From the IMG/VR virus record IMGVR_UViG_3300045988_035176, positions 1-37,271 of that record: 37,271 bases of DNA; one strand, given 5' to 3'. The stretch is from a virus. Made by a program: the position numbers and the translations under genes. Positions 19,390 through 37,271 of this stretch are shown here, piece after piece. A model generated the notes under the pieces. That model made no database searches. It saw nothing but the letters and a program-made list of their open reading frames with translations, and was not told the origin of the DNA. The first letter of the stretch is position 1, and every line of letters starts with the position of its first letter.

Positions 19390-19731
19390 CTAGTCTGTGA
19401 TTCCATTTCGTATTTTCAACGCACCTATCAGGATAGTGAACACATCGCCATTTATTTCAATTTGCATGTCGTAAAAATAATGTCCTGATTCAATGTCCTT
19501 TGTATCTTCAGGCACAATTCGCACCACGTAATACATCTTGTTGCGCTCCTGCTTCCTGAATGAGATTCCATCTTCAAGTGTTTTCTGAAATACGACATCG
19601 CCATCATCAAGATTCTTTTTGCACGTGAAGAGCGCTTTTTCAAGCTGTTGCGGTTTGTCATCGAACTCAATCTCAACCGCAAATGACAATGTGTCGCCTT
19701 TTATCATTTCAAGATTTGTCTTTTCCATCAT
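19390..19731 (-). CDS. Beta-sandwich-like tail accessory protein, paralog 1 (about 113 aa).
   Basis: It is paralogous to 18779-19132. A GAGGTGG RBS is present and the start overlaps the Dit stop. Confidence 0.45.
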   Translation of the reverse strand: MMEKTNLEMIKGDTLSFAVEIEFDDKPQQLEKALFTCKKNLDDGDVVFQKTLEDGISFRKQERNKMYYVVRIVPEDTKDIESGHYFYDMQIEINGDVFTILIGALKIRNGITD

Positions 19732-20429: not shown

Positions 20430-20441
20430 ATTTTTACCGCC

Positions 20442-22949: not shown

Positions 22950-22963
22950 ATGCAACCCCCTTC

Positions 22964-23547
22964 CTAGAACCAGTCGTCCTCATGTTGTGCCTTTTCATAT
23001 GCCTTCGCATAAGTTGTTCCTGTCTTTTCAAGCATCAGTTCAAAATCAAAATCATCTTTGTAATGCTTGTAATACATATTGAAAGTTGTCAGTGTCAATC
23101 TTCCAACTTCATGAAATGTAAAACCGAGTTTGTTACGCCCGATAAAGTAGAACCATGTAAAGTCTATCGGCTCTGGTTCATCCTCATCGGGGATTATACG
23201 TTTTTTTCGGTGCTCTGTGTGCTGTCAACGACAACGCCATTCATCAACTGTGCAGATGATTGCAAGCCAATTTCCGTGATCATTCTTCCGACCTGTTTTC
23301 GTGTAAGCAACTTTTCTTTTGTGCCGTTTTCCTCGTTGTCAATGTCAATGCCTTCATTCAACATTGCCGTGATACCAAAGATAACAGCCTTTGCGTTTGG
23401 CTCACCATCGTTTTCTGTGCCGTCTGTGAGCTTTCCCCAGTTTTCGAGTGTGCCGTATTTTTCTTGTATAACTTCCATCACGTTAAGATTGAAAGCTAGC
23501 TTGTATGTCTTCCCTTTGTATTCAAATTCTTTTGAGATTTCCTTCAT
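22964..23547 (-). CDS. Tail assembly chaperone, -1 frameshift fusion product (GT-like).
   Basis: A slip at A_AAA_AAC (23200-23206) opens a 79-codon -1 frame (RIIPDEDEPEPIDFTWFYF...HEDDWF). It ends at 22964, just before the tape measure RBS. Confidence 0.6.
23194..23547 (-). CDS. Tail assembly chaperone (G-like, frame 0).
   Basis: A 117-aa acidic protein between the major tail protein and the tape measure. It ends 2 codons after the slippery heptamer. Confidence 0.7.
   Translation of the reverse strand: MKEISKEFEYKGKTYKLAFNLNVMEVIQEKYGTLENWGKLTDGTENDGEPNAKAVIFGITAMLNEGIDIDNEENGTKEKLLTRKQVGRMITEIGLQSSAQLMNGVVVDSTQSTEKNV
23200..23206 (-). other. Programmed -1 ribosomal frameshift slippery heptamer A_AAA_AAC.
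   Basis: It has the canonical X_XXY_YYZ form and sits in the conserved position for siphovirus G/GT chaperones. Confidence 0.6.
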
Positions 23548-23557
23548 GTTTGCCTCC

Positions 23558-23588
23558 TAATAAATAAGACAGGGACTAACCCTGTCTT
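23558..23588 (-). terminator. Terminator/attenuator hairpin after the major tail protein gene.
   Basis: AAGACAGGG-UUAGU-CCCUGUCUU (9-bp stem) followed by AUUUAUUA. It lies 10 nt after the major tail protein stop. Confidence 0.5.
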
Positions 23589-23598
23589 GAATATTCTT

Positions 23599-24159
23599 TT
23601 AGGCTGTCTTTGCCATCAGTCCTTCAAGATATGTGACAGCTTCAGTCTTTGTATCAAACGTTTTAGATTTTGACCATGTGCCATCTGCCAATGTTGCAAC
23701 AGTTCCTGCAAGCTCAGTCGTACTGAATGATACGCTATCGCCTTTTGTAGCATCATCCTGTGACGGTTCTGAGAATTTAACCTTGCACAAGAACTCTACT
23801 GTGTACTTGTAAGCACCGTTCACCATCTTTGTGACGATTCTTCCAAAGCCTACATACGGCGCAACATCATTTGCATTTCTGACAAGCTCTGAACCTTCTT
23901 TTGAAACTGTATGTCCTAGAAGGTCTGCCATTGTCTGCACATCTTCGTTGTCGATTTCTGCTGTAACAGAACCTTTCTGAAATGATGTATCACTCTCAGC
24001 CAATGCATCATCTGCATACAAAGACGCATCATTGTTACTGATATCCACTTTGCAAGAAATAGCCTTGGCTGGCTTTTTCGCGCCATCATAAGTCGCTTTT
24101 CCATCTCCCGATTCTGTAAGTTTTGAGTATCGGAAGTTATTTAAACCAATTTTAGCCAT
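23599..24159 (-). CDS. Major tail protein.
   Basis: A 186-aa protein directly upstream of the chaperone pair. The N-terminus MAKIGLNNFRYSKLTE is typical of phi13-family major tail proteins. Confidence 0.7.
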   Translation of the reverse strand: MAKIGLNNFRYSKLTESGDGKATYDGAKKPAKAISCKVDISNNDASLYADDALAESDTSFQKGSVTAEIDNEDVQTMADLLGHTVSKEGSELVRNANDVAPYVGFGRIVTKMVNGAYKYTVEFLCKVKFSEPSQDDATKGDSVSFSTTELAGTVATLADGTWSKSKTFDTKTEAVTYLEGLMAKTA

Positions 24160-24505
24160 GTTCGCTCCTTTCTATTGAAAAACATAGTGTTTTATGATAA
24201 TACTTCGTATCATCCTCATACATGTCTGCGGATGATCTGTCAGGTTCCCACATGAACCCAACACTCGTCAGCAATCCCTTTAACGCCTTGATAATCGGCT
24301 TGTAATTGCTTTTTGTGTAAATATCAAAGTCATAATATTCAACGTAGTTCAGCAGCTCATCATCACCATGTAACACGCTGTCCGCATCTGTCATCATGTA
24401 AGTGATGTATGTTTCCGAGCTTCCATTGTATCGCAAAAACTTAACAGGTATTTCTTTGCCGTTGACCGTGAAGCCACTCAATGTTTTTTCAATGAGGTTA
24501 TTCAT
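24152..24505 (-). CDS. Tail completion / tail terminator-like protein.
   Basis: The call is based on position (between the gp10-like protein and the major tail protein) and size (117 aa). Confidence 0.5.
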   Translation of the reverse strand: MNNLIEKTLSGFTVNGKEIPVKFLRYNGSSETYITYMMTDADSVLHGDDELLNYVEYYDFDIYTKSNYKPIIKALKGLLTSVGFMWEPDRSSADMYEDDTKYYHKTLCFSIERSEHG

Positions 24506-24926
24506 CTAAAAGCCCCCCGCTCAACTTCTTCTGCTCTTCTTCCATCGCTTTCATAATCTGTGACTTTTTGAAAGACTTTCGGAAGAACGGTTGCTTTGGA
24601 TAGTTCTTTTTCGAGCTTCCATATTCGAACATGTTAGCAACAAGTGGCGCAGGAGTCTTTCTTCCATCTTTATTGATGAAATATCCAGTAATCATAACTT
24701 TCGTATTGATACCATCATCTGACGGCGTTTTATATACACGTGACAGCTTCACATTTTTTGCGAAACCTGAACTGCTCAGCGACCCTGGAAGATTGGCAAT
24801 GACGTTCTTGTAAACGACCTCAGCACCTGCTTTAGTCATACCACCAAAGATATGGTCGAACTGCTTGTCGATGTAAGATATATCCTTCAATACGCTTTCA
24901 TCAATATCAGCCGTGAATTTTGCCAT
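24498..24926 (-). CDS. HK97 gp10-family head-tail joining protein.
   Basis: The call is based on position and the C-terminal PFFRKSF motif typical of the gp10 family. Confidence 0.65.
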   Translation of the reverse strand: MAKFTADIDESVLKDISYIDKQFDHIFGGMTKAGAEVVYKNVIANLPGSLSSSGFAKNVKLSRVYKTPSDDGINTKVMITGYFINKDGRKTPAPLVANMFEYGSSKKNYPKQPFFRKSFKKSQIMKAMEEEQKKLSGGLLDE

Positions 24927-25252
24927 CAGTGAGTCACTTCCTTTGCCTGAATCTCAAGCTCTACGCCATTCTCGTCCACGTTGTTCAGATACTCAATTGT
25001 ATATGTTTTGCCGTGAAACTCAATCAGCATATCCTTTGTGATTTCTGTTTTCGGATACCGAATTGTGAAGTTGGTGTATGCTTTTTCAAAATCAGAATTG
25101 TTCGCAATAAGCGTGAATCCCTTTGTCGTCCTCACGTATGCATACGGTGTAAGAATCACCTGCTTTTGTTCTGTCTGAAAGCCATCCTCATCTGTCACAA
25201 TCACAGTTTTGTAAATTGTGATACGTTTTGAATACTTCCCTGCGTTTAACAT
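24926..25252 (-). CDS. Head closure / head-tail adaptor protein.
   Basis: MLNAGKYSKRITIY...DEDG...FTIRY...IEFHGKTYTIEY matches the head-closure (SPP1 gp16-like) pattern. Confidence 0.7.
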   Translation of the reverse strand: MLNAGKYSKRITIYKTVIVTDEDGFQTEQKQVILTPYAYVRTTKGFTLIANNSDFEKAYTNFTIRYPKTEITKDMLIEFHGKTYTIEYLNNVDENGVELEIQAKEVTH

Positions 25253-25262
25253 GATTCACACC

Positions 25263-25562
25263 TCACAATAGATTGACGCTATGCATCGCAAGAATGCTCT
25301 GAACAGTATTGTTCAAATCCTTGCTGTCAACATACATTGTGCGGTTGTCCCACATGTCCTGACACAAGATAAGCACCACAATCACAAATTCAGGATATTT
25401 GTCAACGCCATCATCGTCAAGTCCTGTATAGCTTTTGATAAAAGAAGTAGCGATGGAAATAAGCATGGTCAATGTATCATTTTCGCTTTCTGCTACTTCG
25501 TCCAGTCTCAAATATTCTGCGACGTATTTCACTGTAATATCACTGACTTTGCTTACTTCCAT
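25263..25562 (-). CDS. gp6-like head-tail connector protein.
   Basis: VKYVAEYLRLDEVAESENDTLTMLISIATSFIKSYTG is the Phage_connect_1 pattern. Confidence 0.7.
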   Translation of the reverse strand: MEVSKVSDITVKYVAEYLRLDEVAESENDTLTMLISIATSFIKSYTGLDDDGVDKYPEFVIVVLILCQDMWDNRTMYVDSKDLNNTVQSILAMHSVNLL

Positions 25563-25578
25563 ACAGTTTCACCCCTTT

Positions 25579-26718
25579 TTATTTTCCTGCTGCCATCACA
25601 AGTTTTGCAAGTTTTTGAGTGTCTGCAACCTTTGCATCCCATTCAACGAAAGCTAAAATTCCAAGTAAATGTTCTTCGGCATATCTTTCTTGTAATACCT
25701 GCATGTTAGCTTCTTCTGAAACTTTCACAGCTAAACCAGATAAGTCACCGTAATAAATGGTTGTTTTTCCTGCAAGTATCTTGTCCATAGCATCAGAGCA
25801 ATAAACGTCCTTGCCTAGAAGTGTATATCCCCACTTTGCTGTAAAGTCACGGTTCAACAAATAATCGCCTTCATTATCCTTTAACTTTCTGATTGCATTT
25901 CGAGTTTCACGGTTCATAATCCAAATAGAATTACCTTGATAATTGTCAATTACCTTGTCTTGTAAATCCATCAACTCATCAGATGTAATCTTTGTGGATG
26001 TGGCAGTTGTAACAGTCATATCTGATGTAATTCCAGTTAGACCTTCAACCTTTCCACTTGTACCGAACAAAATCTCATGTTCAAAATACAATGCGATTGC
26101 TTGTGCCATTTTTGCTTCAACAAAGCCAACGATGTCAAAATTGGAATTGTTAATCAAGCTTTTTGAAATTTTTGCACGACAACGTGCAAGGAATCCGCCA
26201 AGTGTAATCTGAGTGATAACAACCTTTCCAGACTCTGCTGTAGTTCCTTCATCTGCATATTGCATCACGATAGAACTGTTCTCCGCATCATACTTTGGTA
26301 ATACTAAATTGCCAGTGATGTTATAGCGGTCTGCCATAGAGAACACAGGTGAGATTTCAATTACTTGAGAAATAATTTCATTCCAAACAGTTGTCGGAAT
26401 AAGTGTTTTTGCATCTGCTGGCATTGTTGGTGTGTCAGTATTTACAATTCCACGAATTGCATTCTCGAATGTTTTGTGATCTCTTTCTGCGTTTGTCATT
26501 TCAACATGTGGTGCAGGAACTTCCTTCATTGTCATGTCTGCCATCTGGTCATACATAGCAATAGTTGCATCAATGTCCTTGACTTCCTTTTCAAGGTTTG
26601 CAAACTTATTTTTTTCGTCTTCAGATGGTAATCTGTTTTCTGCCTTTGCAGTTGTCAACAATGCTTCCATCTGAGTGACTTTTGCGTTTCGATTTTCGAT
26701 GAGTTCTTTTACGTTCAT
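25579..26718 (-). CDS. Major capsid protein, HK97 family.
   Basis: A 379-aa protein with an N-terminal coiled-coil delta-like domain. It directly follows the ClpP-type prohead protease. Confidence 0.85.
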   Translation of the reverse strand: MNVKELIENRNAKVTQMEALLTTAKAENRLPSEDEKNKFANLEKEVKDIDATIAMYDQMADMTMKEVPAPHVEMTNAERDHKTFENAIRGIVNTDTPTMPADAKTLIPTTVWNEIISQVIEISPVFSMADRYNITGNLVLPKYDAENSSIVMQYADEGTTAESGKVVITQITLGGFLARCRAKISKSLINNSNFDIVGFVEAKMAQAIALYFEHEILFGTSGKVEGLTGITSDMTVTTATSTKITSDELMDLQDKVIDNYQGNSIWIMNRETRNAIRKLKDNEGDYLLNRDFTAKWGYTLLGKDVYCSDAMDKILAGKTTIYYGDLSGLAVKVSEEANMQVLQERYAEEHLLGILAFVEWDAKVADTQKLAKLVMAAGK

Positions 26719-27473
26719 TCTTTTGCCCCTCCGTCTTTCTTTAATGAACTAATAATATTGTCGTATGCTGAATAATCAAGCACACGATCCTCGACAGGCT
26801 TTTTAGTCTGTTTTGGTCTTTTTAGTGCATCTGGCACATGCTTATAATTTCTGAATAAATCTGTTGCACATGCCTGTACATCCTTCACTGTTTCAAGTTC
26901 ATTGACATTGAAATAGTTTCCGATATACATATCATCATCTGCATTACCACTGAACCACGTTTCGTTGTCCACTAGCTCTGCAATCTTTTCTGCCGTGATT
27001 CCTTCTTTTGCCTTTGCTTCATACATTGGCAATATCGTTCCACTTTCAATCAGATTGAGTGTGTCAATGTCATGCTGTAGCTCGTTCGCATTTCCGTATG
27101 CAAACGTCATTGGCTTATGAATCATCATTACCGAGTTTTTGTAAATATTAATATCATCTGCGACCATGGCAAGATATGTTGCGGCACTTGCACACAATCC
27201 ATCAATATATGAATGAATCTTCGCTCCGTTGTTCTGTCTGAATCTCTTCAACATGCTTACCATTGTGGAACTTGCAAACACTGAGCCACCACCACTATTG
27301 ATGTAGATATTAAAGTCTGTCACTCCTGTCAGACTGTCAAGTTCTTCCTTAAATGCGTTTGTGTCAACTGCTGATTCATCAGTCCATAAGTCCTTCTCAT
27401 CTACGATATCTCCATATACATAAAAATCAGCACTTGTTTTCGTCAGATTTTTTAGGTACTTGTAGTTCATCAT
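26715..27473 (-). CDS. ClpP-like prohead serine protease.
   Basis: Motifs INSGGGSVFAS, GLCASAATYL (Ser) and MIHKP (His) are present. The likely start is near 27473 (GGGGG RBS), overlapping the portal 3' end. Confidence 0.85.
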   Translation of the reverse strand: MMNYKYLKNLTKTSADFYVYGDIVDEKDLWTDESAVDTNAFKEELDSLTGVTDFNIYINSGGGSVFASSTMVSMLKRFRQNNGAKIHSYIDGLCASAATYLAMVADDINIYKNSVMMIHKPMTFAYGNANELQHDIDTLNLIESGTILPMYEAKAKEGITAEKIAELVDNETWFSGNADDDMYIGNYFNVNELETVKDVQACATDLFRNYKHVPDALKRPKQTKKPVEDRVLDYSAYDNIISSLKKDGGAKE

Positions 27474-28695
27474 CTGCCCCCTTCTCTTCCACTTCATCAT
27501 CTGTTTTTTCTTCATCTCCACCTGTCACTTGTCCAGTGTTTGGAGTGTAATACGTTCCAGTGTTGGTGTCATACAATACTGCGCCAAGCCCAACATTGAT
27601 AACGTCCATGCCCTCAATGTAATTGAGATTTTCCATTCGACGCAACTCATTGATAGTCATAAGTCCTGTATCTTTTGCAACCTTGTAAGCATCGAATCTC
27701 TCTTTGATGTTTGCTTTCACAATTTCTTTCGTGTCAAATTCAAAGAAGAAGTTTTTCTTTTCTTTTTCTAACAGCAACGTGCTGTTTAGTGCTGTCTCAA
27801 ATGCTTTAATAATCGGATATATCGCTTCCTTAAATGTCAGATTGAAGTCACTATGAATGTGGAAAACTCCATTGATTTCATCCTGTAATGTTTTCTTCGA
27901 CTCATTCAACTGCATTTCAACAGAACTGTTTGACGACTCCTGAAACTTGATGCCGTTATTCAAGACCATGACGGACTCGGTGTTGTTGGCATATAACCTT
28001 TTCCATGCTTCTTTCAGCTTGTTGATTTCTTCCTGTCCTAAACGTCTTTCGGCCTGTAAGAATCCTTTTTTGTTACCACCTGTTTGAACCAGTCCAAGCT
28101 GATACACCAACGTACTGTATGCCGTTTCAAGTGCTTTTGAAATTTCTTCCGTCAATCCCTTTCCGCTTGCTCCGTCTTTGGTATTTCTCAACAGCTTCAC
28201 CATGTTCCACGGATAGATTTTATCTGTACCAACATAGAACTGTACGAAGCGATTCATCGGGTCGGAATTTGACCACACAGTGACATTTATATCTGGAATA
28301 TATTTCAGTGCTGTTACGTTGTTCTGTCTGTCTATCTGGATGTAACAATATCCACCCTTGCCGAGTAAATAATCCTCGACCATGGCCTTTTTTGTCTGAA
28401 ACCCGTCAAGCGTGTTTCCTGTGTCGCCGTTCAACATTCGTACACGGCTGTCATTCTGCACTTCCTCAACTTTGCCTTTCTTGTACTTGTAAAGTTTAAC
28501 AGGCATTGCCGCAATCGAACCACTGATAAAATCAACAGCACCTGATACGGCAGGAAGCGTGAGTGCCTTTTCCCTCGTGATTGTCTCATTATTGAGCAAT
28601 GCCGATAACAGCACATCATCAAGCTGAACACTTTGATCATTAAGATTTACTTTATTCTTGAATATTTTTTTGAATAGTGCCACGCTCGTTACCAC
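27427..28695 (-). CDS. Portal protein, HK97 family.
   Basis: About 420 aa, between terL and the protease, with an acidic C-terminus. The start is the GTG at 28695 or 28683 (RBS AAAGGGTGG). Confidence 0.85.
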   Translation of the reverse strand: MVTSVALFKKIFKNKVNLNDQSVQLDDVLLSALLNNETITREKALTLPAVSGAVDFISGSIAAMPVKLYKYKKGKVEEVQNDSRVRMLNGDTGNTLDGFQTKKAMVEDYLLGKGGYCYIQIDRQNNVTALKYIPDINVTVWSNSDPMNRFVQFYVGTDKIYPWNMVKLLRNTKDGASGKGLTEEISKALETAYSTLVYQLGLVQTGGNKKGFLQAERRLGQEEINKLKEAWKRLYANNTESVMVLNNGIKFQESSNSSVEMQLNESKKTLQDEINGVFHIHSDFNLTFKEAIYPIIKAFETALNSTLLLEKEKKNFFFEFDTKEIVKANIKERFDAYKVAKDTGLMTINELRRMENLNYIEGMDVINVGLGAVLYDTNTGTYYTPNTGQVTGGDEEKTDDEVEEKGADDELQVPKKSDENKC

Positions 28696-28707
28696 CCTTT
28701 ATTAGTA

Positions 28708-28722
28708 TTTTCTATTTGAAAC
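28708..28722. repeat. GTTTC-N5-GAAAC motif copy with one mismatch (TTTTCTATTTGAAAC).
   Basis: It shares the exact 14-mer TTTCTATTTGAAAC with the copies at 5582 and 6663. It lies between terL and the portal gene, just upstream of the portal RBS. Confidence 0.55.
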
Positions 28723-28765
28723 ATTTTTACGCAAATATCTTAGCATAAATTCACGTTTCTATCAA

Positions 28766-30460
28766 TTAAATCATCTGGAACGTGAAGTCACCTTCATTTA
28801 AGAAATAATCCTGCTCAAGAAGGTAAATTGCATTGATAAGTGATACCACCATATCAACCTTGCCGTTGCTCTTTTTCTTGCTCACGTACATGTTTTTGTT
28901 GGTGTCATATGCACATTTCGCATTCTGAAAGTTGATTTCAAGAAGTTTGTTTTCTGTGTATTTGAATTTCTGCTTAAGTATTGCTTCTTTCATCCTCTTT
29001 GTCGGAGAATGTAACACGCTTGAATACTGCTTTATTTGAACCGTGTTATAGCCTTCATTAGCCAATTTCTGCGCTGTACTTAATGCATTCCATCTATCAT
29101 ATCCAATCGCCTGAATTTGCACGTTATAACGGCTTTCAACACTCAAGATTAATTGCTCAACAAATGCATACGAGATAACTCTGTCACCGCATGCAAATAC
29201 CTTCCCACTCTTTAATAGTTCTTGATAGTTCACACGCTCTGAGACTGTTTTCTCCGTGATCCTGTCTGCTGGAATGAACGCAAAACTTTCTGCAAGAATG
29301 TTATCATCATCATCGACAGAAACCATGGCAACAGATGTATTATCGTTCGATTCTGAAAGGTCAACACCTAAATATACGACTCTGCCGTTCCAATCAATAT
29401 TCGCAACCTTGCATGCTTGAACATCTTTAACATCAATAAATGTTTCAGTTCCTTGTCCTTGATAAATGATATTGCAGTGCTTTGTAACAAAGTTCTCTCG
29501 CTCGTTTTCAATAGCGATGGCTCTGGCTCTTTTCTTTACAAGATCATCCCAAATTTCAGGGATTTCCAATGCCGCAGGATTCGCCTGCTTTAAAACCATG
29601 TCGTCAGTTTCCCAATCAGACGTTTTGTCAGGCTCATACAGCAGTGCAAATATTGTTTCGTCTTTCTCGATGCCATCAAGAACCTTTTTGGCATATGCGA
29701 CCTCATCCTCGAACGGATTGTCGATTGTCGGATATTTTGTACTGATAACGAACCCTAGTTTGTTGACAACGTTAAGCTGTCCAGAACGCATAGCTTCAAC
29801 AGGATAGCCGTTCGGCAATGCTCCAACCTCATCTGCGATAAATGCGTTCGGCATACGTCCGTCCATACGGTTGTTACTGTATGCAAGCGGTATAAGCGTG
29901 TTTTCGTTTGGCTTGAACTTGATGTAGTCCCTTAACAACTTGAAACGCTTCGTTCCTTTGTACTCATATAACAGTGGACTGCTTTTGATTGTATCTGAGA
30001 TTGCTTCTTTTATCTCTCTCGATAATGCACCGTCTGGTGCAACTGAAAAGAACTTTGAGAACCTTGGTTCTGTCAAAAACAAGATGATGAAGATTGTGGC
30101 GACCGTGTACGTCTTGAAGTTCTTTCTGCAAATTTCCAAAATCCCTGTCTCGTATCTGCGCTTGTTTGGCTTGTCACGGTATACAGTGCATAGCATGGAT
30201 GTATAAAATAGCCACTGATAACCAGTGGCACACTTATACATCGACTGTCCTGCTTTCAATCCTTTCGGCATGTTAAGCAGTTTCAGAATGTTTTCAATCT
30301 GTTGAACTTTCTTTTCGGATACGAAATATTTCTTGTCTTTTCCTTCAGCAATCCGCATCCATGCTTTCATTTGTAACTTAACGTACTTCGGTGTGACTTT
30401 CTTTCTAATAGATTTTTTGCAACATTCATAAGCCTTACTGCTCGTCACCGCCATCATCTT
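28766..30460 (-). CDS. terL: Terminase large subunit.
   Basis: About 565 aa in the Terminase_1/COG4626 pattern, with a Walker A-like CRKNFKTYTVA and a C-terminal nuclease domain. It overlaps the terS 3' end. Confidence 0.9.
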   Translation of the reverse strand, partial: KMMAVTSSKAYECCKKSIRKKVTPKYVKLQMKAWMRIAEGKDKKYFVSEKKVQQIENILKLLNMPKGLKAGQSMYKCATGYQWLFYTSMLCTVYRDKPNKRRYETGILEICRKNFKTYTVATIFIILFLTEPRFSKFFSVAPDGALSREIKEAISDTIKSSPLLYEYKGTKRFKLLRDYIKFKPNENTLIPLAYSNNRMDGRMPNAFIADEVGALPNGYPVEAMRSGQLNVVNKLGFVISTKYPTIDNPFEDEVAYAKKVLDGIEKDETIFALLYEPDKTSDWETDDMVLKQANPAALEIPEIWDDLVKKRARAIAIENERENFVTKHCNIIYQGQGTETFIDVKDVQACKVANIDWNGRVVYLGVDLSESNDNTSVAMVSVDDDDNILAESFAFIPADRITEKTVSERVNYQELLKSGKVFACGDRVISYAFVEQLILSVESRYNVQIQAIGYDRWNALSTAQKLANEGYNTVQIKQYSSVLHSPTKRMKEAILKQKFKYTENKLLEINFQNAKCAYDTNKNMYVSKKKSNGKVDMVVSLINAIYLLEQDYFLNEGDFTFQMI

Positions 30461-30809
30461 CACCACCATTAATGATCTTCATAAGCGGGTCTGCATCCTC
30501 GGTTGTATCACTTACATTATAATTTTTAATGATCTTCATAAGAGTTGCAACTGTTCTATTTGCACTATCTGTCGTTGCATTATAATCTTTTACTGCTGGA
30601 CTAGAATATAGATTTTTTCTACCTTTAACATATTCTTTTTCAACTAATATTCCATCATCTTTTATAGATTTTTCTAATTCATATAACATAACTAATTGCA
30701 TTTGATATCTTTTGAAAGTAGTTATAAAAAAGTAATTACTTTGTACTCCACTTTCTTCTGCAATTTTTAAAATCTCTTGTGCTTGTTCGGATAAAGTCAT
30801 TTTTGCCAT
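30435..30809 (-). CDS. terS: Terminase small subunit (P27/Terminase_4-like).
   Basis: A 124-aa protein directly upstream of terL. The pattern ...YQMQL..LYELEKSIKDDGILVEKE...LYSSPAVKDYN...A.RTVATLMKII fits the P27 family. An HNH endonuclease is present in the genome, as is typical for this family. Confidence 0.6.
   Translation of the reverse strand: MAKMTLSEQAQEILKIAEESGVQSNYFFITTFKRYQMQLVMLYELEKSIKDDGILVEKEYVKGRKNLYSSPAVKDYNATTDSANRTVATLMKIIKNYNVSDTTEDADPLMKIINGGEDDGGDEQ
30469..30542. repeat. 17-bp perfect direct repeat TTAATGATCTTCATAAG (30469-30485 and 30526-30542) at the GC-content break inside terS.
   Basis: The copies were read directly and are 57 bp apart. They encode the duplicated peptide LMKII in the TerS C-terminus. 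Confidence 0.9.
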
Positions 30810-30830
30810 ATTATCACCCCCTATAATTTT

Positions 30831-31382
30831 TTATTTAAGATTTTTTATTTGATATGATTTATTATAACTCTTTTGGTCCTTAATCATAATTTTTAAAAAA
30901 TCTTCTCTTGTTAAATCAGATAATCTAAATACTTCTTCTGGTTTCATTCCTAATTCCTTACATATTTCTTTTGTTGTTTTTCCTTCATCCAATAATTCTT
31001 TTACTATCGCTTTCATTGGTTCTAATAAATGAGTTCCTCTTGCTCTATTATGTGTGATAGTACCATAGATATCTTCTGCATGGTCTTTATGGTCCACAAT
31101 AACAACTGGAACTTTATTTTTTAATAATGTTTTTAATGGTTCTCTACCTGATACAGTCCATCTATGAAAACCATCTATAATTGTATAATCCGGTCTTATA
31201 ACTATTGGCATAGTCCAACCATTTGTTAATATAGACTGAACTAATAATTCAAGATTTTGTTCTGATACTTTATTTGGGTTGTAATTATTTGGCTTTAATA
31301 AATCTCTATCAACAAATTTAACATTTTCTAAAGGTTCTAATATATTTTTATTTTCATATTTTTTTATTTCATTTTCTTTCAT
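30831..31382 (-). CDS. ParB/Srx-fold protein, IbrB-like, with a C-terminal HTH.
   Basis: Motifs NNYNPNKV, IIDGFHRW and HNRARGTH are typical of IbrB-type ParB-like nuclease-domain proteins. A putative HTH is TTKEICKELGMKPEEVFRL. A 4-nt overlap links it to the upstream gene. Confidence 0.7.
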   Translation of the reverse strand: MKENEIKKYENKNILEPLENVKFVDRDLLKPNNYNPNKVSEQNLELLVQSILTNGWTMPIVIRPDYTIIDGFHRWTVSGREPLKTLLKNKVPVVIVDHKDHAEDIYGTITHNRARGTHLLEPMKAIVKELLDEGKTTKEICKELGMKPEEVFRLSDLTREDFLKIMIKDQKSYNKSYQIKNLK

Positions 31383-32473
31383 ATGCTACTCTCCTTCGCT
31401 ACATCCATAAACAATTTTAAATCTAAAGCTCTTATTGATCTTCCTTTGGGATCTCCACCAATTACTATATTACATAACTCTTTGTAATGTTTTTGATTTA
31501 AAAATGGTCCATATTTAATTAATATTCTATTAATACGCTTTTTTACATACTGCATAGATTTATTATCAAATCTCCATTCTTCTTTCATCATTCCAAAGAA
31601 CTTTTCTTTATAATCAACTTCTTCATCTTTCTTTGCTTGTTTATTTTTCTTTTGTCTTCTAAATAATTCAGTATCATAATAAAGCATTGCCATATAAGCA
31701 TTTGGTTCTCTTTTACAAATCTTATCAAATAGCCCAGGGTAAAATTCACACATGTTAACAAGACTTCTTATTGTATCTATGCTAAAAAATTGACTTATTC
31801 TTAATCTATTAATTGGAATTCCTACTTGATACATAAATTTATAGGCATCTGGAAATTCTAAGTTATTATCTCTTATATACATCCATACATCTTTATCGGT
31901 CCAATCATAGATAGGAAACATTTTTTCTTGTGATGTTCTACTTGCCAAATTCATTGATCTTTGAATACTTTCACTTGCTCTAACACCAATTAATGATACA
32001 CAATTTTTATTTTTTTTATCCATAAATTTTTGATAGGTATCATGTCTTTCATTAAGTAATGGATCATTTGTAATTGCAAATTTTGGTTTTTGTCTTATCC
32101 ATACATCTTTTTTAGTTTCATCCCAACAAATAAAACTTTCATCATTTGCTAATTGATTTAAGCAATTATAATGTTTTACCTGAATACACCACCAATTAAA
32201 AGGTACTCCAATACTCAACCATTGTAGTCTAATGCTTTTTACTTGTTTTTCTACACAAGGATAAATTGCTTCTTCATCTATAAAATCAACAGTTAATTTT
32301 GATTTATCAATTTCACCATTTTGGCATAATTTAAAAATCAGATCATTTAAACAAATACTATCTTTCCCACCACTTACTGATAATTCAATTCTACTAGCAG
32401 TATTAAATATATTTTTTATTCTTGTCTTTGCCATTGTTACAACATCAACATTTGAATATTGTTTTTTAATCAA
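31379..32473 (-). CDS. PP-loop ATP pyrophosphatase, PAPS-reductase family, IbrA-like (with a DUF3440-like C-terminus).
   Basis: It has the canonical PP-loop SVSGGKDS, then GVRASES and PIYDWTDKDVWMYI. The C-terminal region ...FYPGLFDKICKREPNAYMAMLYYDTELFRR is also present. The ECG(L/I)H redox motif of true CysH is absent. Confidence 0.75.
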   Translation of the reverse strand: MIKKQYSNVDVVTMAKTRIKNIFNTASRIELSVSGGKDSICLNDLIFKLCQNGEIDKSKLTVDFIDEEAIYPCVEKQVKSIRLQWLSIGVPFNWWCIQVKHYNCLNQLANDESFICWDETKKDVWIRQKPKFAITNDPLLNERHDTYQKFMDKKNKNCVSLIGVRASESIQRSMNLASRTSQEKMFPIYDWTDKDVWMYIRDNNLEFPDAYKFMYQVGIPINRLRISQFFSIDTIRSLVNMCEFYPGLFDKICKREPNAYMAMLYYDTELFRRQKKNKQAKKDEEVDYKEKFFGMMKEEWRFDNKSMQYVKKRINRILIKYGPFLNQKHYKELCNIVIGGDPKGRSIRALDLKLFMDVAKESSI

Positions 32474-33083
32474 GATAAATCATCTCCCCACAAGAAGGGC
32501 ATATAATATATTTCTTCTCATTTTTTTCAGTACCGACTTTTGTTTCCGTTACCATTGTTACTGGCTCGTTTTTAATTTCTGGTTCTTTTTCAATATAAGT
32601 ATTATTTGTTTCTTGCTTTGGTTCTTCTTGAATAAATTTAGTATCTGTTACAACTCCATAATTACTAATTGCTTCTTCAACTTGTTCATCTGTTGCAGTC
32701 ATTTGCTCCAAAATATACTTGTCATAACCAGCGATTTCAAAATCTCCCATTCCAGTTATCTCTTGGATGTAATTATTTATTTCATCGTAATTTTCTGCAC
32801 CCAAGCTATAAATTTTATTATCACTTAAAATTAATTTTTTCTTTTCAACTTCTGATAGACCTGTTTTTCTATAACATTGAACATCTGCTTTATTCATTTT
32901 TACTAAAGCAAAATATAAGCCATTACCAATTAAGATATTATTATCTTCATCAATAACCATTGCTCTTGTCTGTCCAAACTGTTCTACACTTTTAATTAAT
33001 TCATCAATTTGTTTATCATTATGTTTTCTAACATTCTTCTCCAATGGTTTTAGATCATTTATTTTTACTACTTCTAATTTCAT
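32466..33083 (-). CDS. ParB-like N-terminal domain protein (degenerate) with an acidic linker and a C-terminal CxxC.
   Basis: KINDLKPLEKNVRKHNDKQIDELIKSVEQFGQ...ILIGNGLYFAL follows the ParB-N pattern seen in phage ParB-methylase fusions. The GxxR arginine box is replaced by GNGLYF. The C-terminus contains CPSCGEMI. Confidence 0.6.
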   Translation of the reverse strand: MKLEVVKINDLKPLEKNVRKHNDKQIDELIKSVEQFGQTRAMVIDEDNNILIGNGLYFALVKMNKADVQCYRKTGLSEVEKKKLILSDNKIYSLGAENYDEINNYIQEITGMGDFEIAGYDKYILEQMTATDEQVEEAISNYGVVTDTKFIQEEPKQETNNTYIEKEPEIKNEPVTMVTETKVGTEKNEKKYIICPSCGEMIYLD

Positions 33084-33084
33084 C

Positions 33085-33897
33085 TCATTTTCCCCTACTT
33101 TCTAAAAATTCTCTAGCACTTGTTAATCTGCTACTAGCATTTATTACAATGCTTTTATCAATATCATATAATTCTTGCCATACTTCATTTTCTGTTTTAT
33201 CCATTATGGCTCTTTCAGTCCATTCTCCCATTGCTATTGAACCCATTAAAAAACCCCTATCCCATTTATAAAATGGTGGTAATTCTATATTGTTATATTT
33301 TATATAAGCAAGTAATTGTTCTGCATTCCAATTAGCAAGAGGAGAAAAGACATCATAATTGCTCTTACTAACAATATAATTATTTTCTTTATTTCCACAT
33401 TGGTTTCCATCTTTAATTCTTCTTCCTGCGATAAATAAATCAAAATTATATTTAGTAATATCTTTATTTTGTCTTTTCCATTTTTCCGCCATCCAATTTT
33501 GTCTAGTATTACATTTACAAAATAAATACTGTGGATGTTTTTCTAAATATTCCAGACTATATTTATCAATAACTTCTTCAATTAGATTTTTAGGTTTGTT
33601 TTCATTAATCCATTTTCTCATTTCTGGGTATTCATTAATACCACACCAGAATATAGGTGTTGATTCAATTTTAGATTTATTAATAATATCTTGTAGTACA
33701 ATACTATCTTTACCTGCTACCCAACCATTACAAATATTTTTATACTTTTTTGATATATCTCTAATAAATGATGTTGTTTCATCTGTTAATTTATCAATAT
33801 CTTCTTTGCTGTAAATGGTAGTACATTTATCAAATGCTTCTAACCATTCACTATTATCTTTTATATTTTGTTTTTTAGTCAGCATAGTATCACCCAT
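33085..33897 (-). CDS. PAPS-reductase-family protein with a degenerate PP-loop.
   Basis: NGWVAGKDSIVLQDI occupies the place of the SGGKDS loop. It is followed by FIAGRRIKDG and PLANWNAEQLLAYIKYNNIELPPFY. An 8-nt overlap links it to the permease gene. Confidence 0.55.
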   Translation of the reverse strand: MGDTMLTKKQNIKDNSEWLEAFDKCTTIYSKEDIDKLTDETTSFIRDISKKYKNICNGWVAGKDSIVLQDIINKSKIESTPIFWCGINEYPEMRKWINENKPKNLIEEVIDKYSLEYLEKHPQYLFCKCNTRQNWMAEKWKRQNKDITKYNFDLFIAGRRIKDGNQCGNKENNYIVSKSNYDVFSPLANWNAEQLLAYIKYNNIELPPFYKWDRGFLMGSIAMGEWTERAIMDKTENEVWQELYDIDKSIVINASSRLTSAREFLESRGK

Positions 33898-34975
33898 TCA
33901 ATGATTTTACTGATATATAGCCAAGTATTAATGTTGCTATTATAAAACTTATAACTCCAACAATTGAATTAATTGTTATTTGTCCTAAAGTTGCAAATAA
34001 TACCATTAGTCCAAATGTTATTGCTGATACTGGAATTACTATATTTGTTTTTTTCTTTAATGCTAATGGTAATAACAAAATACCAACTGCAAATGCAAAT
34101 CTAATAACTCCAAATGAACTCCATAATTGAAGCATTCCCATTTTAACAAATACTCCAAATGTAATACATAAGAATAGTGAAAGTCCTGTTCCTATTCTCT
34201 TATTTCCTACTTCATGAAGTGCTACTGCAATACTATCTATTGTTGATGTAGTTACTCCAAGAACTGCTACTAATAAAATAATATGCATTGGTAGTGTAAA
34301 TTTAAAGAAGGCCATTCCTAATATTAATAACATATAAATCCCAAATAAAAATGCTCCTAAATAATAACCTTTTTTACTTTCATCTGCTTCTGCTCTTTGC
34401 CAATGTTGTACATCTCCAATAGGCCCAGCGAATAAAATAAGTCCAGACCATACTCCCCATAACACACCACTCATGCTAGTTGGTGCAAATACTTGTAATG
34501 GGGCTTTTGTAAATATTCCAACTGCTATAATTGCTATAATTGATACAATAGCAATGATCCATTGATATACATCTGTTTTAACTGATGTTGGTAGTCCTTT
34601 TTTGTAAACAATTAGAGTAAAGAAAAATCCTAATGCTATTGTTATCAAATATGATGCAGTTGTACTACCTGTAATAATTAGAAATTGTTGATTTATAAAA
34701 TTCAACTGAACTAATAAGCAGAATAATTGAATTACTAATGCTATTACTTTTACTTCTTTTCTATTATAAGTTTCTGGACTAATTTTTTTATTGTTATATA
34801 GCCATCCAAATAATGCAAGTGTTAAGGCATTACAAACAGCCCATACAATCCATGCGATTATACCTTTCTCTTGAGCTATTTGTTGTCCCATGATTAAAGA
34901 TGTTCCCCAAGCCCAACTTGCAGCACTTGAAGCACCTATTTTTTTAAAACTTAGATTCTCATTTTCCATTTTCAT
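33890..34975 (-). CDS. Polytopic membrane protein, putative SSS/LeuT-fold-like permease (361 aa, about 10 TM).
   Basis: About ten hydrophobic segments are visible. GPIGDVQHWQRAEADESKK resembles the G.dQ...QR..a.k motif of sodium:solute symporters. The N-terminus GASSAASWAWGTSLIMG resembles SSS TM1. An AAAGG RBS is present. Confidence 0.55.
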   Translation of the reverse strand: MKMENENLSFKKIGASSAASWAWGTSLIMGQQIAQEKGIIAWIVWAVCNALTLALFGWLYNNKKISPETYNRKEVKVIALVIQLFCLLVQLNFINQQFLIITGSTTASYLITIALGFFFTLIVYKKGLPTSVKTDVYQWIIAIVSIIAIIAVGIFTKAPLQVFAPTSMSGVLWGVWSGLILFAGPIGDVQHWQRAEADESKKGYYLGAFLFGIYMLLILGMAFFKFTLPMHIILLVAVLGVTTSTIDSIAVALHEVGNKRIGTGLSLFLCITFGVFVKMGMLQLWSSFGVIRFAFAVGILLLPLALKKKTNIVIPVSAITFGLMVLFATLGQITINSIVGVISFIIATLILGYISVKSLNG

Positions 34976-35003
34976 TTACTACCTTTCTTATATCGCCCGC
35001 TCA

Positions 35004-35019
35004 TGTTCCACGTGGAACA
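35004..35019. promoter_or_regulatory. parS-like site TGTTCCACGTGGAACA. It is perfectly symmetric and forms the core of the 18-bp palindrome at 35003-35020.
   Basis: It matches the Firmicute Spo0J/ParB parS consensus TGTTNCACGTGAAACA at 15 of 16 positions. It lies 28 nt upstream of the permease ATG, inside the operon leader. Confidence 0.6.
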
Positions 35020-35070
35020 TTTTCGCATGATTTTAGCTTCTTTTTAAAGCGAAAAACGGCTTATACTCAC

Positions 35071-35100
35071 ATTATAGCGTGAATTTGGCCGTTTATCCAA
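35071..35100 (-). promoter_or_regulatory. Sigma-A-type promoter of the AT-rich operon (TTGGAT, 18 nt spacer, TATAAT).
   Basis: The minus strand reads TTGGATAAACGGCCAAATTCACGCTATAAT. The 7-bp inverted repeats AAACGGC/GCCGTTT (35054-35060 and 35088-35094) bracket the -10 region. Confidence 0.5.
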
Positions 35101-35190
35101 AAAATCTTAGTATTTTATAATTTTTGTGATTAGTTATATAGACGTTTCATCTTGGTGTCACACCAGACAATGCCCGTTACCATGGGGGGA

Positions 35191-35571
35191 TTACTTCAGC
35201 TTCTCGATTCTCTGCCTAGCTAGCTTCTTTAGATACTCGTTATCAATCATTCCTGCATCAGCTAACCTGTGACAGTCTTTGCATAAGCATATAAGGTTAT
35301 CATCATCCAACCATAGCTCTGGCTTATCCTTCAGCTTCTCTATGTGATGCACCTCTACATTTCTATAGTTATATATGCCTTTGTCTTTACATACTTCACA
35401 TAGATAGTTTGCATCCTCTCGTATCTGCTTGCTCTTCTCTGTCCATGCACTCTTGCTTCTTAGCTTTGATTCTTTGTAGCTGTACTTGTACTTCTTCTTT
35501 TCTACATGGCATACATAACCTTTCGGATGTATCTTCCCGCACTTACTACAAGCATAGTACCCTTGTGCCAT
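35191..35571 (-). CDS. HNH endonuclease (packaging-associated type).
   Basis: It has N-terminal CxxC pairs and the motif VEVHHIEKL...NLICLCKDCH. Its ATG overlaps the endolysin stop (TAATG). Confidence 0.85.
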   Translation of the reverse strand: MAQGYYACSKCGKIHPKGYVCHVEKKKYKYSYKESKLRSKSAWTEKSKQIREDANYLCEVCKDKGIYNYRNVEVHHIEKLKDKPELWLDDDNLICLCKDCHRLADAGMIDNEYLKKLARQRIEKLK

Positions 35572-36644
35572 TACTTAACTCTCAGCTTTTGCCCTGCGTA
35601 AATGACGTTCGGATTGCTGATACCATTCATAGCCTGTAGCTTCTGCCAAGTTGTGCCATATCTGGATGCAATGCCTGACAATGTATCTCCGCTCTGCACA
35701 GTGTAATATACTGCCTGAGATGCACCTAGCTTCTGGTTGACGATATTCTGAATGGTATTATAGTCATACCCTGCCTGTTCCAATCTGTTCTTACGGCTGT
35801 TACCATCTCCCCAAGCTCCCGCAATAACCTCGCTTGCAATCTGTTCATTTGACTTTCTGACAGGTGCAGCCTTCTTGTTTACAATGTCCTGAATCACATT
35901 GTAGTCATATCCTGCTTGTGTAAGTCTGTTCTTGCGATCTTCACCGTTTCCCCAAGCTCCTGCAATTACTTCGTCTGCAATCTGCTCGTTACTCTTTCTA
36001 ACAGGTTTTGGCGCAACTGGTTTTGCTTCACCGCTTGGATTCGCATACTTATGCCATGCTGTAGCATCCATATAGGCAATGTCTAAATCAAGGTTGCCTG
36101 CATATCCTGCCAATCTTCCACAAGAAGAATACTGTCTGATAGCACATGTATAATAACCCTCATTCCATGGATGTTCCTGATAGCCTGTCGGATTGTTATT
36201 CGCATACTGTGCAATCCATAGTCCATAGTCTCCAATGCCAGAGACTTCTTTGTACAAGCTTGCTGATGTATAGATTAAAGGTTTGACCCCAGTTTTTTCT
36301 ACAATTCGATTGCACCAGTTGCTGATCCATGTTCTAGCTGGACCGCCTGTTCCACACAGTGCGTTGTCCTGATGCTCCCAGTCTAAGCAGAGAATAGCTT
36401 CGCCGATATATCCTTGAATGTTATTCAAGAAATAATCTGCTTCTGCTACTGCATTCCATCCATTTGCATAGTGGTATACACCTAATAGCTTTCCGTTAGC
36501 TTTAGCTTGCTGATAAGCTCTGTCGCAATCAGGATTCACATATCCTGTACCTTCTGTAGCTTTGCAAATTACAAAGTCACATGGAACTTTTGATAGATCA
36601 ATCCCTTTTTGCCAATTTGAAATGTCAATTCCGTTTAATGTCAT
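35571..36644 (-). CDS. Endolysin: GH25 muramidase, two CW_7 repeats and a LysM domain.
   Basis: The GH25 N-terminus is [26 protein letters not shown]. Two repeats of about 47 aa follow ([36 protein letters not shown]). The C-terminal LysM is [18 protein letters not shown]. Confidence 0.9.
35712..36002 (-). repeat. Two tandem CW_7-type cell-wall-binding coding repeats in the endolysin gene.
   Basis: Amino acids 215-261 and 262-311 of the endolysin are near-identical. Confidence 0.8.
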
Positions 36645-36658
36645 TTTTTCTTTCCTCT

Positions 36659-37015
36659 CTAATGATTCTGTGCCCGTTCATTTTCCAACTCCTTTATTCT
36701 TGCTTCATGATCATCCTTGTAATTAAATAGCGTTTTTACACGCTCTGAAACAATAACTAGCTGTTCTGATACTTTTTTTAGTTGTTCAGTCTTTTCACCA
36801 TTTTCTGCCATCATCTTTTTTGTTGTGTCACAAAAGTCGTCAAGTTTTACATTGATTTTTACAAAGCTTTTTTCGACATCCAACTGTCGATTTTTTTCTC
36901 GCTCTGCCTGTTCTTCCTGACGCTTTTTGCCACCTGCAAAGGTGTTGATTAACGTACATGCAAGTGATGTCAAGGAAATAAGTAATGCGATGCTTACACT
37001 TGCTTCAGGAGTCAT
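36659..37015 (-). CDS. Membrane-anchored coiled-coil protein in the lysis cassette (holin accessory or antiholin-like; function unknown).
   Basis: It has an N-terminal TM segment ([22 protein letters not shown]) followed by a charged coiled coil. It lies between the holin and the endolysin. Confidence 0.45.
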
Positions 37016-37219
37016 TTATTCCACCTTTTTATAGTTCGCCGAACTGATCTGTAGACATGCTCCAATGCACGTTCCAATTGCCGAAATAGTTCCTGCAATT
37101 GCTTCTGCATAATCCCATCCCCAGATTTTGCCGAGCGTGATAATTAAAGCTGAAAATGCGTTCGTTCCAACAAGTGCAACCCATTTCAATTTGTCGTATG
37201 TTTTATTAGAAAATACCAT
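37016..37219 (-). CDS. Holin (Dp-1-family-like, two TM segments).
   Basis: A 67-aa protein. The pattern YDKLKWVALVGTNAFSALIITLGKIWGW...IAGTISAIGTCIGACLQISSANY resembles the Dp-1 holin family. Its 5' end lies in the terminal overlap. Confidence 0.65.
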   Translation of the reverse strand: MVFSNKTYDKLKWVALVGTNAFSALIITLGKIWGWDYAEAIAGTISAIGTCIGACLQISSANYKKVE

Positions 37220-37271
37220 TTTTTACCTTCTTTCATAACTAAATTATACTATAATTATTGCCAAAAAAAAG
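37187..37271. repeat. Terminal overlap, copy 2 (identical to 1-85).
   Basis: Base-by-base comparison shows 85/85 identity. This is consistent with a circular assembly. Confidence 0.95.

Follow-up and report, generated by a model that had tools for sequence, protein, structure and literature searches.

The HNH-terS interval and its five coupled genes

The IMG/VR virus record IMGVR_UViG_3300045988_035176 (positions 1 to 37,271; this whole stretch of 37,271 nucleotides is hereafter designated as the window) carries a block of five coupled open reading frames (ORFs) on the minus strand, at positions 30831-34975, which is located between the gene of an HNH endonuclease and a putative terS. In coding order, this block encodes a permease of 361 aa (33890-34975), a PP-loop protein of 270 aa resembling 3'-phosphoadenosine 5'-phosphosulfate (PAPS) reductases (PAPS1; 33085-33897), a ParB-like protein of 205 aa (ParB1; 32466-33083), an IbrA-like PP-loop protein of the ATP-pyrophosphatase type with a TTG start (364 aa; 31379-32473), and an IbrB-like protein of 183 aa that combines a ParB/Srx fold with a helix-turn-helix (HTH; 30831-31382). 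Successive ORFs overlap by 8, 8, and 4 nt, except for a 1-nt gap at position 33084, and the ORF listing is identical in this respect to a first-pass annotation made from the sequence alone. Also as described there, the GC content of the block is low, with 27.6% compared to 38.8% for the remainder of the window. The slot is bordered upstream by the HNH gene (35191-35571, minus strand; PF01844, 3.5e-8) and downstream by the putative terS (30435-30809, minus strand, 124 aa, 30.4% GC), which is 21 nt past the IbrB-like gene and overlaps terL (28766-30469). The putative terS is named by its position only, its profile match being to phrog_13845, a family of unassigned function.

Both PP-loop proteins match PF01507 (PAPS_reduct), PAPS1 at 3e-10 and the IbrA-like protein at 2e-10; PAPS1 also matches phrog_424, and the IbrA-like protein phrog_2302 (2e-76). 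Their PP-loops are found at residue 60 (VAGKDS) and residue 34 (SGGKDS), respectively, and the two proteins are only remote paralogues. As had been noted from their motifs, neither is a true CysH: a search for ECG[LI]H was negative in both, and the best NCBIfam scores were 36 bits for CysD (cut-off 195) and 19-22 bits for cysH (cut-off 165). With the catalytic Cys missing and scores far under the curated cut-offs, an identity as CysH or CysD was rejected. In the family alignment of PAPS1, GKD(S/A) and GRRxxDGN are kept throughout and no Cys is conserved. The PP-loop itself varies at position 1 (V, I, C, or S) and position 2 (A, G, or S), some members having the canonical SGGKDS. Because this variation is family-wide, VAGKDS reflects family variation and not decay, and the dN/dS of 0.14 indicates purifying selection. 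The division into one catalytic and one degenerate pair made in the first-pass annotation therefore found no support.

The AlphaFold2 model of the IbrA-like protein (pLDDT 81.8) comprises an adenine-nucleotide alpha-hydrolase (PP-loop) domain and a helical C-terminal domain specific to the clade. The DUF3440-like tail proposed earlier was not recovered, as PF11922 gave no match to this protein even at E<=10, in a search where IbrA of the E. coli phage PhiR5_2 matched at 4.7e-33. Foldseek, a check suggested with the first-pass annotation and run on the models of this protein and of the permease, returned for the former adenosine 5'-phosphosulfate/PAPS reductases, TilS, NcsA/TtuA, GMP synthase, FAD synthase, LarE, and CysD. 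One of the top structural neighbours was TilS, the tRNA lysidine synthetase, with a similarity limited to the fold level (TM-score ~0.34). TilS is a PP-loop enzyme that adenylates a base carbonyl in nucleic acid, AMP being then displaced by the amine of an amino acid; unlike the IbrA-like protein, it acts on tRNA and has different accessory domains. Alignments of the IbrA-like protein reveal invariant SGGKD, DEEA, and GxRxxES motifs, to which the cassette clade adds REPNAY and GDPKxR, and no conserved Cys in an alignment reaching the IbrA proteins of E. coli, Bacillus, and Streptococcus phages. Since no Cys is conserved in the alignments of either PP-loop protein, a sulfur-transfer model of the DndC/TtuA type was set aside.

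ParB1 matches phrog_620 ('ParB-like', 4e-37) and phrog_498 (ParB N-domain of DNA methyltransferases, 3e-23), as well as the N-terminal region of the PADLOC profile MTase_II (1.7e-11), and has no Pfam match. In the position of the arginine box, it displays GNG (GNGLYF in the window), which had been taken as a sign of degeneracy. This feature was found family-wide, in a family that partners DpdA, TET-associated glycosyltransferases (TAGT), and methyltransferases. A C-terminal CPxCG motif (CPSCG here) is invariant. The IbrB-like protein matches PF02195 (ParB_N, 2.8e-8), TIGR00180 (1e-9), and phrog_2159 (3e-71), and aligns with ParB/Noc across both the N-domain and the HTH. Its conserved motifs are NxYNPN, DGFHR (DGFHRW in the window), and HNRA(R/K)G (HNRARG). 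It is the most conserved member of the set, with 64-79% identity where IbrA-like proteins share 36-67%, and its dN/dS is 0.11. All the motifs listed in the first-pass annotation for these four proteins are present. ParB1 and the IbrB-like protein are remote paralogues only, and a recent tandem duplication yielding two pairs was rejected on the grounds that the paralogues are too remotely similar.

The permease had no family match in Pfam (also at E<=10), NCBIfam, PHROGs, or PADLOC. Sequence searches against solved structures returned nothing for its profile or for PAPS1, and only noise for the IbrA-like protein. Its AlphaFold2 model (pLDDT 86.9) has 12 transmembrane helices (TMs), with TM1 and TM6 broken at residues 21-24 and 182-189, and its top Foldseek matches were ApcT, CHT1, AdiC, and SiaT, together with SGLT2 and DUR3. 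These structural neighbours are LeuT-fold transporters for amino acids, choline, sialic acid, and urea. The invariant motifs of the permease family, SAASWAWGTS and GPIGDVQHWQRA, map to the TM1 and TM6 breaks, and in the LeuT fold the two helix breaks form the substrate site. The permease shares 24-26% identity (E 1e-6 to 1e-8) with genuine PF00474 symporters (SSF) occupying the equivalent position in other cassettes, and is for this reason predicted to be a truncated and divergent SSF relative with a LeuT fold. Its dN/dS is 0.19, a value that excludes L017 (in-frame stop) and L019 (truncated match).

Distribution of the cassette and cargo of the slot

Scanning IMG/VR with an IbrA profile returned more than 500 confirmed stretches. 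The censuses were based on scans seeded with an IbrA pattern, with the best 80 loci per scan, and on small home-made hidden Markov models. Among the 51 evaluable non-sibling loci of IMG/VR, a transporter gene was found directly upstream in 49 (39 SSF, 5 mini-permeases, and 5 ATP-binding cassette (ABC) systems), PAPS1 in 38, and the IbrB-like gene in 50. In GTDB genomes, with one genome per species, a transporter was present in all 68 evaluable loci, including one in a C. difficile chromosome. The gene order is constant (transporter, optional PAPS1, ParB1, IbrA-like, IbrB-like) and hosts include Lachnospiraceae, Oscillospiraceae, C. difficile, Anaerotruncus, Bacteroidales, Treponema, and one metagenome-assembled genome (MAG) of Methanolobus. 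Among cultured strains, prophages with the cassette are found in C. difficile (chromosome OX246690.1, L149), Anaerotruncus colihominis DSM 17241 (L166), Agathobaculum desmolans ATCC 43058 (L194), and Acetatifactor muris DSM 23669 (L212). Far from being unusual, the five-gene composition recurs across both databases and is widespread. PAPS1 is missing from about half of the phages nearly identical to that of the window, as well as from 13/51 viral and 11/68 bacterial-genome distant loci; among isolated phages, the phage collection yielded a single unverified metagenomic fragment with this gene. Judging from these neighbourhoods, the evolutionary unit is composed of the transporter, ParB1, IbrA-like, and IbrB-like genes, with PAPS1 as an option. 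The description of the block as two tandem pairs did not survive, PAPS1 being optional and the paralogues remote.

The transporter found at the cassette position is either an SSF protein (PF00474), a truncated SSF-like permease as in the window, or an ABC permease of the TauC/SsuC-like type with a binding protein of the SsuA family. This non-orthologous replacement, with the remaining genes constant, provides strong evidence that solute import belongs to the function of the cassette. Several observations bear on the solute. The SSF proteins of the cassette score highest against PanF and PutP. A likeness of the ABC variant to sulfonate, taurine, and betaine/proline systems gives a hint about the nature of the solute. 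A chromosomal homologue of the permease, with 66% identity, is located 43 nt after three tandem paralogues of prolyl-tRNA synthetase (ProRS) in a Clostridia MAG (GCA_017938255.1; L001:3885-9104), an arrangement shared by L002 and L003, and hints at a proline-like substrate. On these clues, the solute may be a small zwitterionic amine or amino-acid-like compound. The ProRS trio, two short bacterial-type enzymes and one archaeal/eukaryote-type, is an odd array in itself, and no T-box was found near the ProRS-permease locus in L001-L004. Shorter homologues of about 308 aa, 47-52% identical to the permease, occur in L004 (5926-6852), where a prophage carries the gene between its tail-fibre and lysis genes, and in L027. 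Both lack the cassette, indicating that the transporter can travel alone.

In phages nearly identical to that of the window and recovered from one metagenome, the block occurs with or without PAPS1, with an internal deletion in the IbrA-like gene, with a premature stop in the permease gene, or reduced to the IbrB-like gene alone. These multiple reduced states reveal that the block is dispensable. The dN/dS of cassette genes ranges from 0.11 to 0.25, as compared to 0.05-0.08 for terS, terL, and portal; this combination of purifying selection and frequent natural deletions is typical of an accessory system that is useful under certain conditions. AT-richness was rejected as a mark of function: the cassettes of other phages have the GC content of their flanks, and low GC is specific to the lineage of the window. 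The dS of the putative terS resembles that of the block and not that of terL, and terS is 93-98% identical only in cassette-bearing phages, compared to 62-75% in sister phages with other cargo. Low GC, low dS, and the association of terS identity with the cassette show that the cassette and terS arrived jointly and recently. In 8 of 10 sampled cassette loci, terL or portal is located downstream within about 2.6 kb.

The slot between HNH and terS was compared among phages that share 72-97% terL identity with the window, and 48 loci were classified. The present cassette occupies 13 of them, and eight are empty, HNH being 226-450 nt from terS. Another 13 carry a phrog_620 ParB together with one or two TAGT and a UDP-galactopyranose mutase, while a single locus combines a phrog_620 ParB with a DpdA-type transglycosylase, QueC/QueD/QueE, and FolE. 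ParB::DNA methyltransferase fusions (3/48) and other ParB-like genes (10/48) complete the set. The DpdA locus (L216:3051-6657) is a complete module of the 7-deazaguanine type, and the glycosyltransferase arrangement is illustrated by L221:2270-5834, with 12 other loci (L216/L221 terL 95-97% identical). These varied contents identify the HNH-terS interval as a hotspot of interchangeable DNA-modification cargo. ParB1 belongs to the same ParB family, phrog_620, as the proteins associated with the DpdA and TAGT modules in the slots of sister phages.

The gap of 215 nt that separates HNH from the permease gene contains a promoter-like site (35071-35099, minus strand; TGGATA, 17-nt spacer, TATAAT). 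It was previously proposed as a sigma-A-like promoter proper to the block. The site is present and conserved in close relatives; its match to 10 of 12 consensus positions is of a kind found 34 times in the region, where 37 are expected by chance, so that its support comes from its intergenic position and this conservation. A perfect 18-bp palindrome, ATGTTCCACGTGGAACAT (35003-35020), lies between this site and the permease start codon. Its 16-bp core, TGTTCCACGTGGAACA (35004-35019), fits the consensus of chromosomal parS, TGTTNCACGTGNAACA. The window contains a single exact match, and 100 shuffles gave none. Close relatives, deletion variants among them, all retain this core, with variation at the outermost flanking base, and no copy with at most one mismatch was found in 1.84 Mb of other cassette loci. 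This absence indicates a lineage-specific element and not a general component of the cassette. The palindrome could serve a host Spo0J/ParB or the IbrB-like protein, or act as an operator. A scan of the window detected no terminator-like site between the block and terS/terL, which are separated by a mere 21-nt spacer, and no riboswitch or leader RNA, sought as a clue to the solute, matched Rfam at E<=1 in 30000-37271. In more distant cassettes (L025/L026 and L034), a TATAAT-containing promoter-like site, a GC-rich hairpin, and a T-run are found just before the transporter gene. Judged from its sequence, this leader resembles a promoter-terminator arrangement of the antitermination type.

A candidate DNA-modification pathway and its alternatives

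On balance, and with moderate confidence, we favour a DNA-modification system expressed late, whose PP-loop enzymes would couple an imported solute to DNA and whose ParB-like proteins would provide the targeting. The cassette would be transcribed together with the packaging genes. The LeuT-fold permease would bring in a small polar solute, a task ensured elsewhere by a full-length SSF symporter or an SsuA-type ABC importer. Using ATP, the IbrA-like protein would activate the solute or a DNA group by adenylation, allowing the two to be joined, and PAPS1, where present, would add or prepare one step. Both ParB-like proteins would bring this chemistry to DNA, possibly via nucleotide-dependent loading, the IbrB-like protein contributing a ParB/Srx nucleotide-binding core and an HTH. 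The expected product is a covalent mark placed on phage DNA shortly before packaging, whose benefit would be an escape from restriction-type defences of the host. This interpretation is consistent with the intact PP-loop motifs, with a fold of the IbrA-like protein that matches adenylating enzymes including the nucleobase-modifying TilS, and with the late, packaging-adjacent position of the genes. A substrate imported by the permease for DNA modification was already envisaged in the first-pass annotation, and the conserved, type-swapping transporter link and the equivalence of the slot lend support to this proposal as two independent comparative results. Precedents exist for its parts: the ParB-like ATPase DpdB reportedly drives the step in which DpdA inserts preQ0 into DNA (PMC12839542), some 7-deazaguanine-modifying phages encode the precursor transporter YhhQ (PMC6884629), and a PAPS-domain::Dam fusion of a Vibrio phage, transferred with a neighbouring gene, was found to confer Dnd resistance (bioRxiv 10.1101/2021.05.05.442762). 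A more specific version, which we advance tentatively, is a hypermodification not described in the literature searched, in which an imported amine or amino-acid-like solute would be ligated to DNA by TilS-like or amide-forming PP-loop chemistry under ParB guidance. Such a solute may be proline-like, as suggested by the ProRS-linked homologue, or taurine/betaine-like, as suggested by the SsuA/ProW-like ABC variant.

Known systems share several of these elements. As in IbrA/IbrB of the E. coli ECOR-9 island and their K-12 paralogues YbdN/YbdM, a PP-loop gene with SGGKDS adjoins a ParB/Srx-like gene with DGxHR and an HTH, and the pairing recognised in the first-pass annotation was borne out by tblastn, which found annotated IbrA and IbrB in phages (26-29% and 36-39% identity, respectively). 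In contrast to classic IbrAB loci, which consist of two genes, DUF3440 is undetected and the cassette adds a phrog_620 ParB, a transporter, and usually a second PP-loop protein. The Faecalibacterium phage FP_Taranis (NC_047914) exhibits a four-gene core, gp35-gp38, with a matching order and place upstream of terS/terL. It comprises a transporter (21% identity with that of the window, E 3e-11), IbrA (36%), IbrB (64%), and a ParB-like gene, lacks PAPS1, and is annotated by gene name only. The 7-deazaguanine systems associate a ParB-like partner (DpdB), a PP-loop protein (QueC), and sometimes a transporter (PMC6884629; PMC12839542), but the cassette is devoid of DpdA/TGT and preQ0 genes, its PP-loop proteins are of the PAPS-reductase type and not QueC, and its transporters are SSF or ABC and not YhhQ. 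Phosphorothioation and related systems (DndB/DndC, SspD, BREX type 4 BrxP) also combine an enzyme of the PAPS-reductase fold with a ParB-family protein, DndB, and a weak partial PADLOC match to BrxP was obtained (7e-7). The set does not belong to the Dnd, Ssp, or BREX-4 systems, which include no transporter: neither of its PP-loop families has a conserved Cys, and no DndA/D/E, cysteine desulfurase, SspB/C, PglZ-type, or BREX core partners were found in the window. The Vibrio phage fusion (Piel et al.; bioRxiv 10.1101/2021.05.05.442762) is another phage PAPS-reductase domain tied to DNA modification, with a demonstrated anti-defence effect; the likeness is one of domain type, and that protein is a single polypeptide with a methyltransferase and comes with neither ParB-like proteins nor a transporter. 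As regards partition ParB, the CTP-dependent clamp that works with ParA and parS, the IbrB-like protein has a ParB_N domain in which DGFHR/HNRARG variants stand for the GERRxRA arginine box, and ParB1 has GNG; no ParA-like gene was found among the window proteins searched, and the single parS-like palindrome is missing from other cassette loci. With the hypermodification modules partnered with phrog_620 (L216, L221), the cassette shares both the ParB family and the identical slot. Its logic resembles that of Dpd-type phage modules, except that no recognised DNA-modifying enzyme is present. Overall, the cassette falls within a known kind, ParB-partnered modification cargo of phages and IbrAB-type modules, with a substantial chance that its chemistry is new. 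Neither the transporter-linked cassette nor any mechanism turned up in the literature searches, which returned only annotations and interpretations as auxiliary metabolic genes (AMGs), and profile searches placed this gene set in no characterised system, with PADLOC giving partial matches only. These results agree with the first-pass annotation, which was aware of no characterised system of this composition.

Several points weigh against DNA as the target. No transglycosylase, glycosyltransferase, or methyltransferase domain was detected in the cassette proteins with Pfam, NCBIfam, PHROGs, or PADLOC. PP-loop enzymes more commonly act on small molecules or RNA. The ParB/Srx fold includes small-molecule kinases, and the IbrB-like protein weakly matches one of them, SerK (1.7e-5). 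To our knowledge, the sole experimental phenotype of IbrAB is the activation of prophage genes in E. coli. Positional equivalence is circumstantial, as hotspots can also house unrelated cargo, and eight of the loci bear a phrog_940 'nuclease'-type ParB. Members of the permease family are found apart from the cassette as well, by lysis genes in L004 and after the ProRS paralogues in L001. Finally, the census is biased and metagenomic contigs are not independent, many close relatives coming from a single sample.

Four other explanations were considered, the first of which is transcriptional. The IbrA-like and IbrB-like proteins, with ParB1, may co-activate phage or prophage genes, possibly by way of a ParB-type DNA clamp loaded close to the late promoter, which would turn on the packaging operon. 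Homologues are annotated as 'co-activator of prophage gene expression IbrA/IbrB', the IbrB-like protein has an HTH, aligns to ParB/Noc, and is the best conserved of the set, and the cassette stands at the head of the late genes with, in the lineage of the window, a parS-like palindrome just upstream. We nevertheless regard a regulatory role as unlikely: the near-universal link to three types of solute transporters and the retention of intact ATP-pyrophosphatase motifs in one or two enzymes are left unexplained, and the parS-like site is missing from other cassette loci. In addition, packaging and structural genes are intact in L035 and L036, where most of the cassette is missing, and sister phages run equivalent late genes with quite different cargo, so that the cassette is not required for late expression. 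A second explanation is auxiliary metabolism, in which an imported nutrient (organosulfonate, proline-like amino acid, or vitamin precursor) would be phosphorylated by ParB/Srx-fold kinases and adenylylated by PP-loop enzymes to give a metabolite or cofactor that supports the infected cell, DNA not being the target. The transporter link, the SsuA/TauC-like ABC variant, the 66%-identical permease homologue next to ProRS genes, the presence of CysD and FMN adenylyltransferases within the PAPS-reductase fold, the weak similarity to the ParB/Srx-fold serine kinase SerK, and published virome work listing such genes as sulfur AMGs are all in line with this view. Yet the defining features of CysH/CysD fail, both in motif and in score, and the neighbourhood showed no gene for CysN, CysC, or a sulfite reductase. 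ParB1 comes from a family attached to DNA-modifying enzymes, the IbrB-like protein includes an HTH, and modules for DNA modification otherwise occupy the slot. Taken together, this makes a purely metabolic role slightly less likely still than a regulatory one.

Prophage defence or superinfection exclusion would require expression in the lysogen from the promoter of the block itself, with attack by a ParB-like nuclease or nickase, or self-marking of host DNA. The phage is temperate, with a serine recombinase and a cI-like repressor, and the cassette resides in prophages of many genomes. The block is AT-rich, as are many morons, and a promoter-like site is found in the intergenic gap; in addition, ParB/Srx proteins can nick DNA, according to a reference cited in PMC12839542. 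However, the promoter match is no better than chance, PADLOC gave weak partial matches without any at the system level, and the block runs on to terS/terL with no intervening terminator-like site. The orientation and tight spacing are those of the late operon, and the equivalent cargo of sister phages is of the self-modification kind, which counters defence. A defence module expressed from the prophage had been envisaged in the first-pass annotation; having its own promoter would not turn the block into such a moron, and we consider a defence function improbable. Even lower is the probability that we assign to a packaging accessory, in which ParB-like proteins would assist the small terminase, for instance in the recognition or preparation of the packaging site, the enzymes being secondary. 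This explanation draws on the joint movement of the cassette and terS (identity, GC, and dS), on the most reduced natural variant, L035, which retains the IbrB-like gene and terS, and on the occurrence of a ParB-like gene in most cargo types of the slot. Against this, eight related phages have HNH adjoining terS and no ParB-like gene, the IbrB-like protein of L045 is truncated to residues 118-183, co-transfer may merely reflect recombination breakpoints, and the transporter and PP-loop enzymes remain without explanation.

The interest of the DNA-modification reading extends beyond this phage. Phage 'PAPS reductase' genes are among the most-reported auxiliary genes of gut viromes and are routinely read as sulfur metabolism, while the mechanism of IbrA/IbrB and of E. 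coli YbdN/YbdM is not known. Here, one large clade of PAPS-reductase-like proteins is tied to a solute importer and two ParB-like proteins, in a cassette that is interchangeable at one phage locus with 7-deazaguanine, glycosylation, and methylation modules. A vague annotation is thereby turned into a testable hypothesis, that of a new DNA-modification pathway dependent on precursor uptake. If correct, most phage 'PAPS reductase AMGs' of this clade would be DNA-modification genes, AMG counts in viromes would have to be reinterpreted, and phage anti-restriction would gain a new chemistry. The system would be found in hundreds of prophages of gut Clostridia, Bacteroidales, and Treponema, including one in a C. 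difficile chromosome, with relevance for phage therapy and for the genetic tractability of gut Clostridia. ParB-fold proteins would also be recognised more generally as partners that target modification enzymes to DNA.

Other features of the window and related phages

The window corresponds to a temperate siphovirus-type genome encoding a serine recombinase, a cI-like repressor, ERF, SSB, dUTPase, and a DnaC-like loader. Upstream of the HNH gene are a GH25/LysM endolysin and holins (35571-37219), which precede HNH and terS instead of following the tail genes, and the end of the tail region adjoins the serine recombinase gene (13023-30469 relative to 11381-12757). This gene order is unusual for a siphovirus-type prophage, except if the window represents a circular genome in permuted form. 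The endolysin (35571-36644) is only 33-48% identical in L005, L013, L015-L017, and L021-L023, phages that are otherwise about 90-95% identical, with an identity of at least about 90% retained in the holin and HNH genes on either side. Such a local divergence indicates a swapping of endolysin cassettes. In the early region, a small protein (4020-4346) matches the anti-restriction family phrog_7245 (1.2e-8), and its homologue in L005 matches ArdC-N; the phage may thus encode a second, early anti-restriction function.

The terL of the window is 76% identical to that of L249 (IMGVR_UViG_2595698344_000001). The sole DNA-level match for the flank was the HNH region of the Lactobacillus delbrueckii phage c5, and the packaging module may be kin to those of c5-type Lactobacillus phages. 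The terL of the window is uninterrupted. In six sister phages (L011, L261, L265, L266, L268, and L271), terL is split after about residue 120-125 by an insertion, with a gap of about 1.07 kb in L011 and two terL parts that are 84-98% identical to the terL of the window, a pattern suggestive of an intron, an intein, or the insertion of a homing endonuclease.

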